Assembly: GCA_964565825.1 (NCBI GenBank) | Contig: CAZMGK010000005.1 | Location: 1-63,266 of the forward strand | Reading direction: 5' to 3' | DNA length: 63,266 nucleotides | Source of the DNA: an uncultured Candidatus Saccharibacteria bacterium | GTDB taxonomy: Bacteria; Patescibacteriota; Minisyncoccia; Phycocordibacterales; UBA9973 | Shown: in pieces, positions 2,560 through 44,755 of the stretch | How the letters are laid out: each line of letters opens with the position of its first letter | Numbering within the stretch: position 1 is the stretch's first letter | Made by a program: the position numbers and the translations under genes | Notes under the pieces: generated by a model | The model's database searches: none | What the model was told of the DNA's origin: nothing | The model's input: the letters and a program-made list of their open reading frames with translations, nothing else

Positions 2560-3090
2560 TTATTCCTTTTTTGTAAAAATACTATATGCTATTTTATCGA
2601 TGTCGAGTGATGATTGGTCGAGCTTGCAAGTAGTTTGTTCTGGTTCGTCGTAGTTCATACATTGAACAAATTGGAGTGTGAATGTCAGCGTACCGAGGTT
2701 GTTCCCCGTCTGAGTAACATACGTGTACGTTTTGTATGTACTTCCCGCAGCACCTTCGCTTGTCACCGTGACACAGTATTTTTTACCAGAAATTATTTTT
2801 TCTGTCATTTGTCCTCTTTGAGTAATTTCAGTCCCTGTTGGTGTACAACTAAATAGTCCAGTATCAAGCTTGACCATTGGTGGCCAATCCTTATCTACAA
2901 ACCGAACATGGTTTGTTTTGAGTGCAGTGTTATAATAAAGTGCTTCAGCTGGGGGCAATGGAACATGCGCCGGAAACAGTGCTGGTTGGACGGGTTGAAG
3001 ATTTTTCTTCATGTAGAACATGAAGCCAAGCACAAAAATAACAATAACAATCCATACAATATTCACTCGAAGATAAATAGGTTTGTTCAT
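2560..3090 (-). CDS. Hypothetical membrane-anchored protein (176 aa)
   Basis: One N-terminal TM helix (VWIVIVIFVLGFMFY). The start ATG is fused to element copy 1. Confidence 0.6.
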   Translation of the reverse strand: MNKPIYLRVNIVWIVIVIFVLGFMFYMKKNLQPVQPALFPAHVPLPPAEALYYNTALKTNHVRFVDKDWPPMVKLDTGLFSCTPTGTEITQRGQMTEKIISGKKYCVTVTSEGAAGSTYKTYTYVTQTGNNLGTLTFTLQFVQCMNYDEPEQTTCKLDQSSLDIDKIAYSIFTKKE

Positions 3091-3212
3091 CCCGTTAGAA
3101 ATAAGAAATCAAAGATTTCTGTACTTAATTAACATAATAATAGACCTGCATCCTACTCTTTTTATATAATTAAATCACATTAGTAACACGTTTGATTTCT
3201 AACGGGATTCAT
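3086..3212 (-). repeat. Start-codon-abutting inverted-repeat element, copy 1 (core 3091..3206)
   Basis: cccgttagaaat...atttctaacggg terminal inverted repeat, ttcat on both flanks and a subterminal hairpin at 3104..3120. The left end abuts the ATG of 2560..3090. Confidence 0.85.
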
Positions 3213-13785: not shown

Positions 13786-13833
13786 AGGGATATTGTAGCA
13801 CAACTAGATCCGAGAGAAAGTACAAAAAAAATG

Positions 13834-13910
13834 CAACTGGATTCCGGATCGAGTACCCCAGGGCATACTCTCTTGCTTCGCAATTCACCTCATCCGGAAT
13901 GACAAATACA
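13834..13910 (+). repeat. ccggaat-box intergenic repeat, copy B1
   Basis: caactggattccggatcgagtaccccagggcatactctcttgcttcgcaattcacctcatccggaatgacaaataca. The ends attccggat and atccggaat are complementary. Confidence 0.7.
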
Positions 13911-13938: not shown

Positions 13939-14050
13939 ACAACTGGATTCCGGATCCCCAGTAGTAAAGCGAAACATACTACGGGGCACGGCGAGTACCC
14001 CAGGGCATACTCTCTTGCTTCGCAATTCACCTTATCCGGAATGACAAATA
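13939..14050 (+). repeat. ccggaat-box repeat, copy B2 (with a ~35-nt hairpin insertion)
   Basis: Same ends and core as B1, with the insert ccccagtagtaaagcgaaacatactacggggcacgg. Confidence 0.7.
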
Positions 14051-14142
14051 CAAAAAAAAGGGGGGCGACTACGTCGCCCCCCCCTCTCTCATGTGGTGTC
14101 TTTTTTTTTGATATTTTGTCACACGTACCCTATACTATATAT

Positions 14143-15343: not shown

Positions 15344-15416
15344 TGCGCGATAGAGGATTCGAACCTCTGACATCGTCAACGTCAATGACGCGCTCTACCA
15401 ACTGAGCTAACCGCGC
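15344..15416 (-). tRNA. tRNA-Val(GAC), CCA not encoded
   Basis: GCGCGGT-TA-GCTC-AGTTGGTA-GAGC-G-CGTCA-TTGACGT-TGACG-ATGTC-AGAGG-TTCGAAT-CCTCT-ATCGCGC-A. Confidence 0.9.
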
Positions 15417-15499: not shown

Positions 15500-15513
15500 A
15501 TTAAAAAAATCCT

Positions 15514-15585
15514 CTGGATTCCGGATCGAGTACCCCAGGGTATACTCTCTTGCTTCGCAATTCACCTCATCCGGAATGACAAACA
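15514..15585 (+). repeat. ccggaat-box repeat, copy B3
   Basis: ctggattccggatcgagtaccccagggtatactctcttgcttcgcaattcacctcatccggaatgacaaaca. Confidence 0.7.
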
Positions 15586-15607
15586 CAATATACCAAAAAA
15601 TTCTATT

Positions 15608-32254: not shown

Positions 32255-33558
32255 ATGTTTATATATTCCATTAAAATTTCTCTTACTATTTTTTGCTCAT
32301 CCCAAGGAACTATCTGCCCGTTTATAACCATTGTCTTCTCCGCACCTTTTCCACATATACATACAATATCATTATTTCCTGCAAGCTGAAATGCTTTTCT
32401 GATGGCATCTTTTCTGTCCTCTATCAAGAAGAGGTGTTTATTAAGTACTTTGTCTTCGGAAATTACATACTGTGCAATGTCATCGATAATTTCTCTAGGG
32501 TCATCATCGTATGGATCAACATTAGTGAGTATCACAATGTCAGCCATGTCTTTTGCAAGGAGACCCATTTCTTTTCTTTTTGTCTTGTCTCGTCCACCAC
32601 CTTCTGCTCCAAAAATGAGTATTATTTTCCCTGTATCTTTTTTAAGCATGGTGAGTGTCTCAAGTAAATTTCGCATGGAGAGTTTTTCGTGGGCGTAGTC
32701 TATATAGACTTGAAATTTTTGCCCAAGTTCAACACGCTCCATTCGTCCGGGAATATACGTTACTTTTTCAATCCCTGTACGTATGAGAGTTTTTTCTATA
32801 CCGCACGCAGTACCAATCATGTATGATGCAAGTGCATTATCCATGTTGAATTTTCCTGGTATATTGACTACTATCTTTTGATCTCCGATGGTAAATGTAT
32901 TACTTTCGAGATCGACCATCTTGTTCTGTATAAGTTCTCTAAGCGAATACGATAATTTGTGAGATACAGGAAAGTTACTAAAGTAAGATGCGTGTTCGTC
33001 ATCAGCATTAACGATACTTACTTTTTCTGGAAATATTTTTTTTACGTTACTCTGTGCTATGTGTTGAAACAATATTCCTTTTGCTTTTTTGTATTCTTCA
33101 AATGAATTATTGTGAGATGGGAGATGTTCTGGACTCAAGTTGGTAAATACTCCAATATCGTAGTTGATACCAATATGTCGGTACTGCTTCAGCCCTTCAG
33201 AACTGACCTCAAGTACTGCATGGGTGCAATGCGCTCGTACCATAGATTGGAGCATTTTTTGTGTATACCATGGACTCGGCATAGTCATATGCATTTTGTT
33301 CGGTGTTTCATGTTCTCCTATGTATATGTGTGCTGTCCCAATAAGTCCTGTTTTGAAATGTCCGCCATACGTCAGTACTGACCAAGTAAATTCACTCGTA
33401 CTTGTCTTTCCTTTTGTGCCAGTAATTCCAATGGTGATCAGTTTTTCTGATGGATTACCATACCAAAAAGATGCCAGAATTGCATTCTGTTTATGGTAGA
33501 AAATCAAAAGACTTTCAGGTACGAGATTTTTTATTTGTTTTTTTATGAGACTAAACAT
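32251..33558 (-). CDS. murE: Mur ligase, MurE-type
   Basis: GITGTKGKTSTSEF P-loop, DYAHEKLSMRNLL and FGAEGGGRDKTKRKEMG. It lies directly upstream of mraY. Confidence 0.8.
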   Translation of the reverse strand: MFSLIKKQIKNLVPESLLIFYHKQNAILASFWYGNPSEKLITIGITGTKGKTSTSEFTWSVLTYGGHFKTGLIGTAHIYIGEHETPNKMHMTMPSPWYTQKMLQSMVRAHCTHAVLEVSSEGLKQYRHIGINYDIGVFTNLSPEHLPSHNNSFEEYKKAKGILFQHIAQSNVKKIFPEKVSIVNADDEHASYFSNFPVSHKLSYSLRELIQNKMVDLESNTFTIGDQKIVVNIPGKFNMDNALASYMIGTACGIEKTLIRTGIEKVTYIPGRMERVELGQKFQVYIDYAHEKLSMRNLLETLTMLKKDTGKIILIFGAEGGGRDKTKRKEMGLLAKDMADIVILTNVDPYDDDPREIIDDIAQYVISEDKVLNKHLFLIEDRKDAIRKAFQLAGNNDIVCICGKGAEKTMVINGQIVPWDEQKIVREILMEYINI

Positions 33559-33740
33559 TACTCTAATTGATGCACTTCATTGAGACGTGATTCGTATAGT
33601 GCTGTTGTTTTATTAATACTCTCAGTCAAATTTTTGATGTACCACATGAGAATTAGTGAAAATACAACAAACATTATTTTATAGTATTTTCCAACGTAGA
33701 GTGAAAAAAAATCAACGTTATTATGCATGTTCTTCCTCAT
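33558..33740 (-). CDS. Small TM + coiled-coil protein (60 aa; FtsL/DivIC-like topology)
   Basis: One TM helix (IMFVVFSLILMWY) followed by a short helical tail. It overlaps the scpB stop and the murE start. Confidence 0.35.
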   Translation of the reverse strand: MRKNMHNNVDFFSLYVGKYYKIMFVVFSLILMWYIKNLTESINKTTALYESRLNEVHQLE

Positions 33741-34269
33741 TTACTTGAGAAAAAACAGTCTCAAGATTTTTAATCGTCTCTTCGTATGCAGGGAGCTCGC
33801 TTATTTGGGTGATGCCTAAATACCGAAGTGTGTCTATCGTTGGTACATAGATGTATGAACGACTATCTTTTTTATTTTCTTTTTTCTCAACAAGTCCTCG
33901 GAGATACAAATTTCTGAGAATGAATGAGGAATTGACTCCACGAACATAATCTACTTCACTCCTTGTTGCACCATTTTTGTACAATAAGATAGAAAGTGTC
34001 TCGAGACTTGCTTTTGAGAGCTCTCCACCGCGTTCTTCTTTTTCGACTGTTTCGAGGAATTCAGAAACAGCCGGGTTCGTTCCTAGCGCAAGTTCACCAT
34101 CTGATTCTACAATAACAATACCGGTGTCATCCGTGTACTGCATCCTAAGAGACTCAATAATAGCAACAAGCTCTTCTTCTGAAATATCGAGCTGTTCCCT
34201 AATGTATTTTTTTGACAGACTCTCCCCTTTTATAAATAAGAGCGCTTCGACAAGATTTTTTTTATTCAT
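33721..34269 (-). CDS. scpB: Segregation and condensation protein B
   Basis: VEALLFIKGESLS...LETLSILLYKNGATRSEVDYVRG. It follows scpA. Confidence 0.88.
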   Translation of the reverse strand: MNKKNLVEALLFIKGESLSKKYIREQLDISEEELVAIIESLRMQYTDDTGIVIVESDGELALGTNPAVSEFLETVEKEERGGELSKASLETLSILLYKNGATRSEVDYVRGVNSSFILRNLYLRGLVEKKENKKDSRSYIYVPTIDTLRYLGITQISELPAYEETIKNLETVFSQVNEEEHA

Positions 34270-34391
34270 CCCGTTAGAAATAAGAAATCGAAGATTTCTG
34301 TACTTGATTAATATTAAAATAGACCTGTATCATAATTCTTTTATTTTCTCATTATCTCTTAATAAACTGTTTGATTTCTAACGGGATTCAT
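34265..34391 (-). repeat. Start-codon-abutting inverted-repeat element, copy 2 (core 34270..34385), between scpA and scpB
   Basis: Same termini as copy 1, ttcat flanks and a hairpin at 34283..34299. It abuts the scpB ATG and contains the scpA stop codon (34378..34380). Confidence 0.85.
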
Positions 34392-35157
34392 ATCCTTCTA
34401 CGTTAACAGTACTTTTAGTAACATTCATATCCCCGAATGCACTTTCTTGGTCGGCTACCAATATACCTGTTCTAATAAGTTCGAGAATGGCAAGGAAGGA
34501 AATGAGGGTAAACACTTTTTCTTCTTTCGTGAATATTTTTTTTGACCCCGTAAATTCATTGAAGGAAAATGAAGAGAGCGATTCGACTTGTTTGTGGATA
34601 CGGTCCATCACTTGTTCTAAGGTAATCGTCGTACGTACTTTAATTTCAGGATTATTTTCGACAGTCTCTATCTGGGGAGCTTTTTTCATCACATCTTGTA
34701 TGCACTCATACAAATATGCTGTCGTTATGTGTGTGTCTGGAATAAATCTAACCTCTCTCTTTTGTTCTTTTTTGAGAAAAATAATATCTGTGTCAAAACG
34801 TTCGGCTATTTGCTTCGCAATATCTTTGTATATCTTGTAGACTTTGAGTCGTTCTTCAAGGTCGTCAATCGTGACTTTGTCTTCTTTCGTTATATCAAAG
34901 TTTGGAAGGAGTGAGCGAGATTTTATAAGGAGGAGTGTGGCAAGAATGACAAGATATCCAGTCAGTTCGTAGAAGTCTTTTGACTGACGTTCTTTCATTT
35001 CAGTTACATATGAGGTATATTCTTCAGCAATCGACGAGAGTGATATTTCATTGATGAATAATTTTTTACTCTCAATCAGAGACAACAGCAAATCAAGCGG
35101 TCCTTCGAACGTTGTTGCTTTCGTGATGAAACTAGGTGTGTCCTGTACTGTATCCAT
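34378..35157 (-). CDS. scpA: Segregation and condensation protein A
   Basis: FEGPLDLLLSLIESKKLFINEISLSSIAEEY. The last codons and the TAG stop lie within element copy 2. Confidence 0.88.
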   Translation of the reverse strand: MDTVQDTPSFITKATTFEGPLDLLLSLIESKKLFINEISLSSIAEEYTSYVTEMKERQSKDFYELTGYLVILATLLLIKSRSLLPNFDITKEDKVTIDDLEERLKVYKIYKDIAKQIAERFDTDIIFLKKEQKREVRFIPDTHITTAYLYECIQDVMKKAPQIETVENNPEIKVRTTITLEQVMDRIHKQVESLSSFSFNEFTGSKKIFTKEEKVFTLISFLAILELIRTGILVADQESAFGDMNVTKSTVNVEGYESR

Positions 35158-37238: not shown

Positions 37239-38246
37239 TTAGAAGTAGTTAATTTTCATTTTCTCTCTGATAATGTGCATATTTTCTTCAGCGACTGTTT
37301 GTGCCGCTTTGATTCCCTCTTTCAAAATTTCATCAACTAGTTTCGGATTGTTTTCATAGTACGCTCGTTTTTCTCGAATAGGCGCAAGCATACTGTCGAG
37401 TACTTCAATGAGTCTTTTTTTAATGACAACATCTCCGAGTCCACCTTTTTTGTAGTGTTTTTTGAGTTCTTCAACTTCTTCTTTGTTCGGGTCAAAAATA
37501 TCGAGATAGGTAAAAACAACATTTCCTTTTACTTCACCAGGGTCTGCTACATGAATATGATTTGGATCAGTATACATCTGCATTACTTTTTTTGAAATTG
37601 TTTCGCGAGTATCTGCGAGATTGATCGTATTACCGAGAGATTTGGACATTTTTGCACCACCGTCGAGACCGGGAAGGCGTACAGTATCACTGAGTACTGC
37701 TTTTGCGTGTTCAAATGTATGGCCATAAAATCTATTGAACGTATCAACAATTTCATTTGTTTGCTCTATTTGTGGTAACTGATCTTGACCAACCGGGATA
37801 CTATTTGCATGACAAAATAAAATATCAGCAGCTTGTGAAACTGGATACATAAGAAATCCAGCTGGAACTGTCTCGCTATATCCTTTCTGTTTCATTTCTG
37901 CTTTGACTGTTGGATTTCTTTTAAGTCGTGCAACGGTAACAAGGTTGAGAAAAAAAACAGTGAGTTCGGCAATTTGTGGAATCATTGATTGAATAAAGAA
38001 AGTTGTTTTCTTTGGATCTACTCCGCAAGCAAGATTGTCGAGGACGACTTCACGGACGTTGTCGCGAACTTTCTCTGGATTGTCGGCATTATCTGTGAAT
38101 GCTTGAACATCAGCAACCATGTAAAATGCTTGGTCAGCTGTGTCTTGCAATTTCAATCTATTCTGTATAGAGCCGACATAGTGCCCCAAATGGAGCTTGC
38201 CTGTTGGTCTGTCACCGGTTAAAACGATGTGTTTTTTGTCTTTCAT
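37239..38246 (-). CDS. trpS: Tryptophan--tRNA ligase
   Basis: TGDRPTGKLHLGHYVG (HIGH region) and KMSKSLGN. 335 aa. Confidence 0.93.
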   Translation of the reverse strand: MKDKKHIVLTGDRPTGKLHLGHYVGSIQNRLKLQDTADQAFYMVADVQAFTDNADNPEKVRDNVREVVLDNLACGVDPKKTTFFIQSMIPQIAELTVFFLNLVTVARLKRNPTVKAEMKQKGYSETVPAGFLMYPVSQAADILFCHANSIPVGQDQLPQIEQTNEIVDTFNRFYGHTFEHAKAVLSDTVRLPGLDGGAKMSKSLGNTINLADTRETISKKVMQMYTDPNHIHVADPGEVKGNVVFTYLDIFDPNKEEVEELKKHYKKGGLGDVVIKKRLIEVLDSMLAPIREKRAYYENNPKLVDEILKEGIKAAQTVAEENMHIIREKMKINYF

Positions 38247-38370
38247 CCCGTTAGAAGTAGGAAATCAGAGATTTCCATCCTATATTATTGTTTGATTAAT
38301 AAAATTAAATTTCCTTCAATATTTTACCCGTCCGTAAAGAGTAAATCGTCCGACTTCTAACGGGATTCAT
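38242..38370 (-). repeat. Start-codon-abutting inverted-repeat element, copy 3 (core 38247..38364), upstream of trpS
   Basis: cccgttagaagt...acttctaacggg termini, ttcat flanks and a hairpin ggaaatc-aga-gatttcc at 38260..38276. It abuts the trpS ATG. Confidence 0.85.
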
Positions 38371-40972: not shown

Positions 40973-41054
40973 CATTTTCTAAAGACTCAATTCTTCGTTA
41001 CTTTTTAACCGCCAAAAAGTAACCAAAAAAGCTCTCGACCAACACTTTTTTAAT

Positions 41055-41091
41055 TACCCCAGGGCACCCTCTCTTGCTTCGCAATTCACCT
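41055..41091 (+). repeat. ccggaat-box repeat, core-only fragment B5
   Basis: taccccagggcaccctctcttgcttcgcaattcacct matches the B1-B3 core. Confidence 0.6.
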
Positions 41092-41182
41092 TGACTCACG
41101 AAACTCATACTCACTAAAAATACTAATCCCGATGTAAAATCGGGACCCCGAACAAAGCTTCGGGGCTCGCTTTGCTCAGACA

Positions 41183-41320
41183 GATTGTTTTTTCCTTTGG
41201 AACGTGAATCCTCGTTGGTTCGTATAGGAAAAAGGATGAAATGTGAAAAAAGACAGACAGTTCCCTTTTTAACACCTCTTTCTGGCTTTGGGTTATGGCT
41301 AGATTTCAGAAGTGTCGAAA
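41183..41320 (+). repeat. Tandem intergenic repeat unit R1 (~138 nt)
   Basis: gattgtttt-ttcctttggaacg...ctctttctggctttgggttatggctagatttcagaagtgtcgaaa. It is paralogous to R2. Confidence 0.65.
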
Positions 41321-41338
41321 TACAGGAGAACAAGAAGC

Positions 41339-41470
41339 GATTGTCTTGTCCTTTGGAACGTTCGTATTCGTTTGTTCCTATAGTAAAAAAGTGCTGAGTC
41401 GAAAAAATAATAATCTTTTTAGCATCTCTTTCTGGCTTTGAGTTATGGCTTGAGTTCAGAGTGTCAAAGA
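41339..41470 (+). repeat. Tandem intergenic repeat unit R2 (~132 nt)
   Basis: gattgtcttgtcctttggaacg...ctctttctggctttgagttatggcttgagttcagagtgtcaaaga. Confidence 0.65.
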
Positions 41471-43944: not shown

Positions 43945-44631
43945 TTAATAAACGATCGATTCTTTAACACTACAGTGTTCCGCAACCCAGGCTGTATCGA
44001 ATTCAGAGAGCTCGTGGCGAGTCTCTTCGTAAATATAATATGATTTATTAACAGGTTCGCATGGTGTGGTGACGCAGACAATCGGCATCTTGTCAGTAAT
44101 TTTTTCAGTCGGACAAGCTTGGATGGAACCATCAAAGTAAGCTCTGCAGTACGGTGGATTCACAGTACTCATACAGGCCATCATCGTGCAGGCCATCATT
44201 CCTTTAGGTGATGTACGACTACAGCTATTACATCCATCGTACCAGTTTTGACAGTTCGCTGGTGGTGTATTTGGATCAGGAGGTACAGTGCTAGTACAAA
44301 ATTGTGAACGGAGAACACCTCTAGTCATTGGACCCACAAAACCAGTTGTCGAGATGTCTTGATTGAGCTGGTATGCGCGTGCGGATTTCAATGTGATCCA
44401 CCCAAAATACCCAGTTGGAGCAACATGAAAGTACCCAGCAGTCTTTAGTGCTTCTTGTAATTCTAAAACTTTTGCCCCTTTTCCATTATGATACCCGTCT
44501 CCAAAACGGAGGTTTTGAGTAAATTTAAAACAACCAACCCGAGCATCATTTGCTGTATTCTCTGCATTGGCTGTTAAGAGTGTGGTCATACAAAATATGA
44601 CCATTATAAATAAACTGAATGTCTTTTTCAT
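43945..44631 (-). CDS. Secreted peptidoglycan-binding-domain protein with a Cys-rich C-terminal region
   Basis: Signal peptide, a PG_binding_1-like segment GAKVLELQEALKTAGYF...GYFGWITLKSARAYQ, and a C-terminal half with 14 Cys. Confidence 0.7.
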   Translation of the reverse strand: MKKTFSLFIMVIFCMTTLLTANAENTANDARVGCFKFTQNLRFGDGYHNGKGAKVLELQEALKTAGYFHVAPTGYFGWITLKSARAYQLNQDISTTGFVGPMTRGVLRSQFCTSTVPPDPNTPPANCQNWYDGCNSCSRTSPKGMMACTMMACMSTVNPPYCRAYFDGSIQACPTEKITDKMPIVCVTTPCEPVNKSYYIYEETRHELSEFDTAWVAEHCSVKESIVY

Positions 44632-44755
44632 CCCGTTAGAAGTAGGAAGTCCGAAGACTTCCGTCCTTAATTAGCTAATAATAAAATAATCCGATCACGG
44701 TGTAATTTGTACCCGTTACTTAGTAATAAAACGTCTGACTTCTAACGGGATTCAT
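44627..44755 (-). repeat. Start-codon-abutting inverted-repeat element, copy 4 (core 44632..44749)
   Basis: cccgttagaagt...acttctaacggg termini, ttcat flanks and a hairpin ggaagtc-cgaa-gacttcc at 44645..44662. It abuts the ATG of 43945..44631. Confidence 0.85.

Follow-up and report, generated by a model that had tools for sequence, protein, structure and literature searches.

In a stretch of 63,266 nt from an uncultured Candidatus Saccharibacteria bacterium (GenBank assembly GCA_964565825.1, contig CAZMGK010000005.1, positions 1 to 63,266; hereafter the window), the genes scpA and scpB are separated by an element of 118 bp with inverted termini. Judged from sequence comparison, it is very probably an inserted, non-autonomous Patescibacteria element resembling a miniature inverted-repeat transposable element (MITE); its family would serve as a ribosome relay in front of the genes it occupies, and at this locus translation of scpB would remain coupled to that of scpA. 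The insertion is documented by empty sites in syntenic relatives.

The scpA/scpB junction and its empty counterparts

On the minus strand, the 3' end of scpA reads …GTA GAA GGA TAT GAA TCC CGT TAG and is followed past the stop codon by AAA TCA…(interior)…TTA TTT CTA ACG GG and then by ATG AAT AAA AAA AAT. The repeat core (CCCGTTAGAAATC … ATTTCTAACGGG) directly abuts ATGAATAAAAAAAAT…, the 5' end of scpB. The scpA stop codon lies inside the arm CCCGTTAG, and the scpB ATG follows directly after the complementary arm CTAACGGG. The sequence thus agrees with the original prediction, according to which scpA ends with GAA TCC CGT TAG in one repeat arm and scpB starts on the ATG at the other.

ScpA homologues were gathered, their loci (L119 to L125) were fetched, and the scpA-scpB junctions were compared. 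The order aspS-scpA-scpB is common to all of these loci, and in the closest relatives it extends to trpS-orf-aspS-scpA-scpB-orf-murE. Neither a spacer of ~120 nt nor a …YESR tail was found in these syntenic relatives, in which the two genes are separated by 2-5 nt or overlap. In detail, L119/L120 (ScpA 86% identical) read …ACA ATA TAA, 2 nt, ATGGATACAAATAAAAAAAAT, and L121/L122 (68%) read …CTA TAA TTAGT ATGAATAAAAAAAAT. In case of L123/L124 (62-65%), …TAT GAA TAA overlaps ATGAATAAA, and in L125 (60%) GGA TCC TAT GAA CAT GCA CAA TAA overlaps ATGAAC. Removal of the element and of one TGAA from the window leaves GGA TAT GAA TAA AAA AAA…, which is exactly the junction of L123/L124. Since five syntenic relatives are empty and two of them carry the element-deleted junction to the base, the element at scpA/scpB represents an insertion, as had been proposed from the window alone. 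That a native spacer merely resembles the repeat, i.e., that the overlap is ancestral or coincidental, is extremely improbable. The varying length of the ScpA tail among relatives is the sole point in favour of such a spacer, whereas the short or overlapping junctions of the relatives, the exact recovery of the L123/L124 junction, and the eight occurrences of the 12-nt arm in the window (four inverted pairs; 0.27 occurrences expected by chance) all speak against it.

The window copy is parsed as GGATA[TGAA]T·CCCG…CGGG·A[TGAA]TAAAAAA, with the target site duplication (TSD) in brackets. The undivided form of the upstream TSD region, TATGAATAA, is present in L123/L124. Native scpA sequence ends after …TAT GAA, and only T-CC CGT TAG (terminal T plus arm) derives from the element, the last base of which is the A of the scpB ATG. 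Two details of the earlier reading are thereby revised. The duplicated sequence is the 4-bp TGAA, with one more element base at each end, and not ATGAA; and the arm does supply the last codons and the stop of scpA, but the upstream ATGAA that had been assigned to the element is native. The C-terminus of ScpA is changed by the insertion, but the predicted extent of its remodelling is limited to …VEGYE* becoming …VEGYESR*. The Pfam domain spans residues 27-247 of 259, and the added Ser-Arg is located past its end, where the tails of the relatives differ in both length and sequence. ScpB is unchanged, since the terminal A and the downstream TSD copy recreate ATGAA.

A second pair of occupied and empty sites was found at trpS. 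The empty site in the relative L246 reads …TGGTATAATAATTCTCGTAT ATGAAAGATAAAAAACAC, and its occupied counterpart in the window is …TGGTATAATAATCTTCGTAT A[TGAA]T·element·A[TGAA]AGACAAAAAAC, with the same promoter in both. No arm was found anywhere in the 20.8 kb of syntenic DNA of L246. The coordinates of the element, its parts and its sister copies in the window are compiled in Table 1.

Table 1. Coordinates of the scpA/scpB element, the adjoining genes and the sister copies in the window
Feature	Coordinates	Strand	Remarks
Element	34269..34386	minus	118 bp; terminal T 34386, core 34385→34270, terminal A 34269; inverted termini, no protein encoded; register set on 125 flank-unbiased copies
Upstream TSD copy TGAA	34387..34390	minus	native scpA sequence; forms with A34391 the old scpB ATG copy (34391..34389)
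Downstream TSD copy TGAA	34265..34268	minus	its TG and the terminal A 34269 of the element form the working scpB start 34269..34267
5' arm AUCCCGUUAGAAAU of the 14-bp outer stem	34374..34387	minus	holds the scpA stop TAG (34380..34378)
3' arm AUUUCUAACGGGAU of the outer stem	34268..34281	minus	ends with the AU of the scpB AUG
Inner hairpin AGAAAUC-UUC-GAUUUCU	34283..34299	minus	adjoins the gene-proximal arm
scpA	34378..35157	minus	SMC_ScpA PF02616, E=1e-16 (Pfam); final two codons (TCC CGT) and stop TAG come from the element
scpB	33721..34269	minus	SMC_ScpB PF04079, E=7.5e-36 (Pfam); N-terminus MNKKNLVEAL identical to element-free relative L121
Sister copy 1	3090..3207	minus	core 3091-3206; TSD TGAA 3086-3089 and 3208-3211; start codon of 176-aa open reading frame 2560..3090
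Sister copy 3	38246..38365	minus	core 38247-38364; TSD 38242-38245 and 38366-38369; trpS start codon
Sister copy 4	44631..44750	minus	core 44632-44749; TSD 44627-44630 and 44751-44754; start of secreted PG_binding_1 protein 43945..44631

Besides the genes listed, a 60-aa open reading frame (ORF) without Pfam match is located on the minus strand at 33558-33740, in the interval between scpB and the murE-like gene, both of which it overlaps. Due to positional counterparts of 56-66 aa in L119-L121, it is probably a real small gene.

Anatomy and distribution of the element family

The register of the element was determined on copies collected without any constraint on their flanks, in the genome loci already fetched and in metagenomes. 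For 125 such copies, duplications of 3, 4, 5 and 6 bp with 0, 1 or 2 extra terminal bases were tried. With one extra base at each end (T…A in 47 copies, C…G in 73), the next 4 nt on both sides are identical in 72 of the 125, compared to 11 on average and at most 24 for shuffled pairings. The other registers gave at most 7 of 125, mostly 0-2, close to their own shuffled means, and only one base plus 4 bp is supported. The element is thus delimited as Y·CCCGTTAGA…TCTAACGGG·R. At least 15 different sequences occur as TSD (TGAA/TTCA 33, TTTA/TAAA 22, TTGA/TCAA 5, TGGA/TCCA 4, and others). Since position 1 is T in 70 of 72 and position 4 is A in 66 of 72, the target approximates to TNNA. That ATGAA invariably belongs to the element was ruled out by unbiased flanks with ATGGA, ATGTA, GTGAA, TTTA, TAAA or TTGA on both sides. 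Flanking direct repeats differ between copies (ATGGAT/ATGGAT, ATGTAT/ATGTAT, GTGAAC/GTGAAC, TTTAC/GTTTAC, GTAAAC/GTAAAG, and others), which places ATGAA outside the element. By the same geometry, copies of the C…G class yield GTG in place of ATG as start codon (A[TGAA]C…G[TGAA]A).

Core lengths range from 94 to 135 nt, and the whole element measures about 100-130 bp. The termini YCCCGTTAGA/TCTAACGGGR occur at more than 240 loci and are almost invariant, whereas the interior is highly variable across copies. The sole frames in element copies are upstream ORFs (uORFs) of at most 42 codons that start in host sequence. Short length, lack of coding capacity for a transposase, inverted termini, a copy-specific TSD of fixed length, dispersed copies and empty sites together characterize the family as MITE-like. 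A cognate insertion sequence (IS) might be IS1380-like (ends CC, 4-5 bp duplication).

Mobilisation of the hairpin as single-stranded DNA by an HUH/Y1 transposase, as in IS200/IS605-derived PATEs or REPIN-RAYT systems, with insertion in fixed orientation 3' of a tetranucleotide, is unlikely. It would agree with a 4-nt target and with an element that forms, as a whole, one long hairpin, and strand-specific insertion would naturally result in a strong orientation bias. However, the same copy-specific 4 nt (TGAA, TGGA, TTTA, TTGA, and others) are found at both flanks, and IS200/IS605 elements generate no target duplication. Furthermore, the termini are perfectly symmetric inverted repeats instead of two different subterminal hairpins, and ~20% of the copies have the opposite orientation.

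Species-representative genomes were scanned with the arms and ATGAA, and at least 118 genome stretches were found to carry the element. Among the matches listed, every title that names a lineage refers to Patescibacteria, also termed Candidate Phyla Radiation (CPR), and the others are generic (‘bacterium’, ‘uncultured bacterium’). The lineages named in these matches are Kaiser-, Nomura-, Yanofsky-, Wolfe- and Jorgensenbacteria, Paceibacterota, Kazan and Saccharibacteria-labelled records, and the GC content of the element-bearing stretches ranges from 29 to 60%. A phage origin was set aside, with just 3 viral contigs in IMG/VR carrying the element. Integron attC sites, which bound promoterless cassettes in arrays next to an integrase, were rejected as well (no search aimed at an integrase was made), since the window copies are flanked by TSDs and lie among housekeeping genes such as trpS and scpB, at distances of 3-31 kb from each other. 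In the searchable literature, no description of the element, of the arm sequence, or of work on MITEs or leaderless expression in Patescibacteria was found.

In the window, four copies occur in one orientation, align over ~116-118 nt (118-120 bp with the terminal bases), and all abut the ATG of a long minus-strand ORF, encoding the 176-aa protein, ScpB, TrpRS and the PG_binding_1 protein, respectively. No further degenerate copy was detected in the 63 kb. The arms are perfect 14-nt complements in all four copies, and the inner hairpin is preserved by two-sided changes, with GGAAAUC/GAUUUCC and GGAAGUC/GACUUCC in copies 3 and 4. For the scpA/scpB copy, a fold of -27.4 kcal/mol (z = -3.2) was predicted, in which the 14-bp outer stem takes in the AU of the scpB AUG.

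A vertically inherited cis-regulatory RNA leader of these genes, either riboswitch-like or a protein-binding hairpin, is very unlikely. Such a leader would fit the stable hairpin with its two-sided stem changes, the location immediately 5' of genes in fixed orientation, and the conservation of the arm sequence over the whole superphylum. In contrast, the orthologous sites at scpB and trpS are empty, the flanks carry copy-specific 4-bp duplications, the interior is unconserved, the downstream genes are functionally unrelated, and about half of the unbiased copies are located away from start codons. A search against Rfam yielded no family at gathering score, and at E<=10 only a few weak matches to unrelated eukaryotic RNA families (best E=2.4).

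Several arrangements that differ from the typical copy were noted. Much shorter hairpins (37-69 nt) that are bounded by the same CCCGTTAGA/TCTAACGGG ends, in many cases with GCAAG behind them, occur in L043 (1903-1947), L098 (2481-2517), L106 (5188-5256), L111 (699-764) and L019 (833-881), and may have arisen by internal deletion or constitute a small family of their own. Tandem or nested arms that span 260-290 nt in L078 (1211-1473), L092 (2438-2724), L011 (3889-4164) and L020 (1336-1613) are elements inserted beside or into one another. On the metagenome contig Ga0315293_10003932 (L162, 2820-4231), two termini with the common TSD TTTA are 1412 bp apart, and the flanks of the short pair at 2820-2937 are unequal. 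Between these distant termini, ORFs of 92 aa and 104 aa are located, which by eye resemble a HigB/RelE-type toxin and a helix-turn-helix antitoxin; this locus may represent a toxin-antitoxin cassette carried between element ends.

Other repeats of the window belong to different types. A second repeat family of ~85 nt (core …GAGTACCCCAGGGCATACTCTCTTGCTTCGCAATTCACCT…) is located at 13826-13910, 13968-14052, 15503-15587 and 41027-41111, with three of four copies clustered near the tRNA gene 15344-15416. Direct repeats of 70 nt (2230-2299 and 2331-2400; 89% identical, 101 nt apart) are situated just upstream of the tRNA gene 2437-2508. Two interleaved direct-repeat pairs of 51 nt and 46 nt (80-89% identical) at 41183-41460, with a spacing of ~150 nt, suggest a tandem duplication of a ~150-nt unit.

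Start codons, upstream frames and the proposed relay

Of 128 unbiased metagenome copies, 60 abut a start codon that opens an ORF of at least 60 codons. By eye, many of the remaining copies appear to be situated on TAAA/TTTA at the stop codon of the upstream gene and are followed by an SD-like (Shine-Dalgarno-like) AGGAGG. In the window, 14 gene starts of the form xTGAA compare with 132 other non-coding TGAA/TTCA sites, and all four copies are located on starts (p about 8e-5). Selection or targeting toward start codons is strong. Insertions at start or stop codons would survive in very compact genomes by leaving both reading frames intact, and the predominance of such frame-sparing insertions is what purifying selection in gene-dense genomes would leave. 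Three copies in different genomes (L070, L081 and L109) share the upstream flank …GCTCCCTTGT in place of ATGAAT and are followed by ATGAACC…, which opens just 14-19 codons; these sites are neither start-codon sites nor obvious stop-codon sites.

An outcome as in case of scpA, i.e., an upstream ORF that ends at the TAG of the arm with …ESR* or …EPR*, was observed for five further copies at unrelated gene pairs (tpiA/pgk, nusA/H+-PPase, ruvX/yceG, UDP-glucose dehydrogenase/epimerase, and AMP-ligase/DUF2062). In another 32 of the 182 start-codon copies, the upstream stop codon overlaps the TSD. Copies inside operons are common, and the element appears compatible with polycistronic expression. Among non-orthologous pairs with similar interiors, 136 have the same and 6 the opposite orientation, and family-wide the hairpin is located beside the gene-proximal arm in 120 copies versus the distal arm in 31. 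Since a transposon with symmetric terminal inverted repeats (TIRs) should land either way, this bias points to an effect on gene expression.

Within the window, an SD-like 4-mer at positions -16..-4 was found for only one of 52 genes (ORFs of at least 120 aa), and a -10-type hexamer peaks at -12 from the start codons. The near absence of SD sequences together with this peak indicates frequent leaderless mRNAs in the organism. ATGAA opens 14 of the 52 genes. A corresponding signal was observed family-wide: TANNNT starts at -13/-12 from the upstream (old) ATG in 55 of 182 start-codon copies, at a background of ~3-5 per position, which suggests that many target genes were leaderless. In case of sister copy 3, the promoter TGGTATAAT is situated 11 nt upstream of the old trpS ATG copy. 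The old ATG of these 182 copies shows no SD enrichment, and inside the element TANNNT has no positional peak. An outward promoter within the element was therefore rejected as a general feature, promoter-like matches at 34100-34600 being at chance level as well. No terminator-like site was predicted in the scpA/scpB region.

Stop-free frames were counted on the variable interior only, since the conserved arm itself closes the frames +1 (TGA) and +2 (TAG). In frame 0, the frame of the old AUG, the interior is free of stop codons in 74 of 182 start-codon copies, compared to 17 and 19 in the other two frames and 18 for shuffled interiors. The same holds for copies with a GC content of at least 0.45 (34 of 42 vs. 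2 and 8), for one representative of each of 107 similarity clusters (44 vs. 6 and 12.6), and for 88 singleton copies (37 vs. 4 and 11). In the unbiased set, start-codon copies are open in the three frames in 26, 5 and 4 of 60 cases, whereas the effect is absent from copies off start codons (37, 53 and 35 of 172). For open frames, the stop codon is either the UAA within the 3' arm (…SYF*, UAA-CGGG-AUG) or a UGA overlapping the real start (…LTG*, AUGA). Element lengths peak at 115 and 118, and 109, 112, 121 and 124 also exceed their immediate shorter neighbours. The length offsets are distributed 91/54/37 (chi-square p=3e-6), and the length class by which the frame would run on into the gene is depleted. 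Furthermore, a -10 box of the leaderless type is more frequent in copies with relay-type frames (odds ratio 2.5, p=0.007).

Due to the fact that the peptides of relay frames are alike only in their arm-encoded ends (MNPVR…, …ASYF), translation itself, and not its product, seems to matter. The opposite view, according to which the element is a tiny mobile gene whose frame of ~38-39 codons (MNPVR[NS]RG…ASASYF) is kept open by a functional peptide, is quite unlikely. It could explain the frame-specific absence of stop codons in the interior and the 3-nt periodicity of lengths, and one subfamily has a common internal …NRIGFGR… stretch. However, only the arm-encoded parts of the peptide are conserved, the interiors of 88 singletons are unrelated, the start codon comes from the host gene and not from the element, the frame is not kept open away from start codons, and all window copies are closed.

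For the family, we infer a relay by termination and reinitiation. The old AUG would remain at the 5' end of the transcript (AUGAA-U·CCCGUUAGA…) as entry point of the ribosomes, which would translate through the hairpin and melt it, with an open frame in ~40% of the start-codon copies. Termination at the UAA, which precedes the real AUG by 4 nt, or at the overlapping UGA would then be followed by reinitiation.

At scpA/scpB, the ancestral junction was …GGA T[A TGAA] TAA…, in which the TAA of scpA overlapped the ATGAAT of scpB, and the element entered TGAA. The scpA frame, being +2 relative to the old ATG copy, obligatorily ends at the arm TAG; it runs two codons into the element (Ser-Arg) and stops at this TAG, which is present in every 5' arm in that frame. 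A hairpin of 118 nt with a stem of ~14 bp now parts the two genes, most likely still on one transcript, and co-transcription across the element is plausible. The scpB AUG is base-paired just 5-7 nt from the partner of the scpA stop codon. Ribosomes that end scpA at the UAG of the 5' arm may hold the outer stem open and expose the scpB AUG, and the best reading of the locus is that scpB translation stays coupled to scpA, as in the ancestral AUGAAUAA overlap.

Several observations weigh against this account. Family-wide, the upstream frame is preferentially open and then ends near or over the main start, as expected for a coupled uORF, but the four window copies deviate, their upstream frames being closed after 10, 10, 21 and 11 codons. 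In the scpA/scpB copy (SPECIFICALLY), the old ATG is located inside the end of scpA and its frame closes after 10 codons (MNPVRNQTVY*), and the simple relay is hence inapplicable to this copy. A recurrent class of short uORFs to which the closed window copies might belong was rejected, as lengths elsewhere spread over 6-38 codons with no preferred value. The scpB AUG lacks an SD sequence and is half-buried in a hairpin of -27 kcal/mol, and a promoter within the scpA/scpB element may still contribute to scpB expression. As to the mobile nature of the element, the TSD is intact in just 58% of the unbiased copies, and in the fetched loci (1.65 Mb) these termini were not found to enclose an autonomous element or a transposase. 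Distant arm pairs with equal TSDs, considered as an autonomous partner, proved to consist of short copies next to each other, each with the common TGAA, and a search from solitary termini in the fetched loci detected nothing coding. An ordinary MITE would not usually keep its termini near-invariant over lineages with GC contents of 29-60%, and a symmetric-TIR transposon alone leaves the orientation bias unexplained.

With somewhat less than even confidence, it is tempting to speculate that the element is a mobile translated leader adapted to initiation in CPR bacteria, in which a rebuilt AUG and a selected stop-free frame would provide a ribosome relay. For the closed-frame copies, a more extreme variant would be hairpin-mediated ribosome shunting between the two identical AUGAA sites.

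Comparison with known systems and significance

Like the Correia elements of Neisseria (CREE) and the enterobacterial ERIC/IRU sequences, the present element is short (about 100-150 bp), non-coding and bounded by TIRs that fold into a long mRNA hairpin, with a short target duplication of fixed length, many gene-adjacent copies and presence/absence polymorphism. Correia and ERIC elements affect the expression of neighbouring genes and are co-transcribed with them, and the present element may resemble them in this respect. In contrast, Correia elements duplicate TA, have unrelated termini and are located in the vicinity of genes instead of exactly on their start codons. Neither Correia nor ERIC is known for the rebuilding of a start codon by a terminal base or for a frame-constrained uORF, and unlike them the family described here extends over an entire superphylum, with hardly any change in its termini.

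Rickettsia palindromic elements (RPE) are likewise palindromic and mobile, measure about 100-150 bp, survive in small gene-dense genomes by sparing reading frames, and are part of expressed genes. However, RPE are located in frame inside coding sequences and are translated as part of the host protein, whereas the present element is situated at gene boundaries, where it adds two codons upstream and leaves the downstream protein unchanged. At family level, leaderless uORFs of mycobacteria are similar in having a 5'-terminal AUG without SD sequence and a stop codon beside or over the main start (UAA-N4-AUG, AUGA). These leaders are resident, gene-specific and often amino-acid sensing; the present leader, in contrast, arrives with a transposon and starts on the duplicated start codon of the host gene. 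IS200/IS605-derived PATEs and REPINs are also hairpin-forming, non-autonomous, orientation-biased and dispersed in intergenic DNA, but differ in lacking a target duplication and in their non-identical subterminal hairpins, compared to the 4-bp TSD and symmetric termini found here.

Four properties appear to be new, namely the start codon rebuilt by the terminal base of the element, the association with leaderless starts that lack an SD sequence, the coding-type constraint on the upstream frame, and the termini that are nearly invariant across the superphylum. CPR bacteria, or Patescibacteria, comprise a large share of bacterial diversity and are mostly uncultivated, and their translation initiation is little understood. 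The element provides hundreds of natural insertion experiments on this process. It marks leaderless promoters (-10 box at -12 from the duplicated AUG), reveals that a 120-nt hairpin between promoter and start is tolerated by essential genes (trpS, scpB, pgk), and bears the statistical signature of translation through the insert. For annotation, it accounts for recurrent …ESR/…EPR C-termini and apparent gaps of 120 nt inside operons, and its copies can serve as presence/absence markers for strain-level phylogeny. If true, the relay would be a new route by which a transposon becomes harmless, and it would offer a transferable leader for expression work in CPR bacteria. If the element is indeed a mobile translated leader, constitutive leaderless genes and tightly overlapped operon junctions such as scpA/scpB would become hairpin-gated, translation-coupled units, which would account for both the orientation bias and the near-invariant termini of the family.

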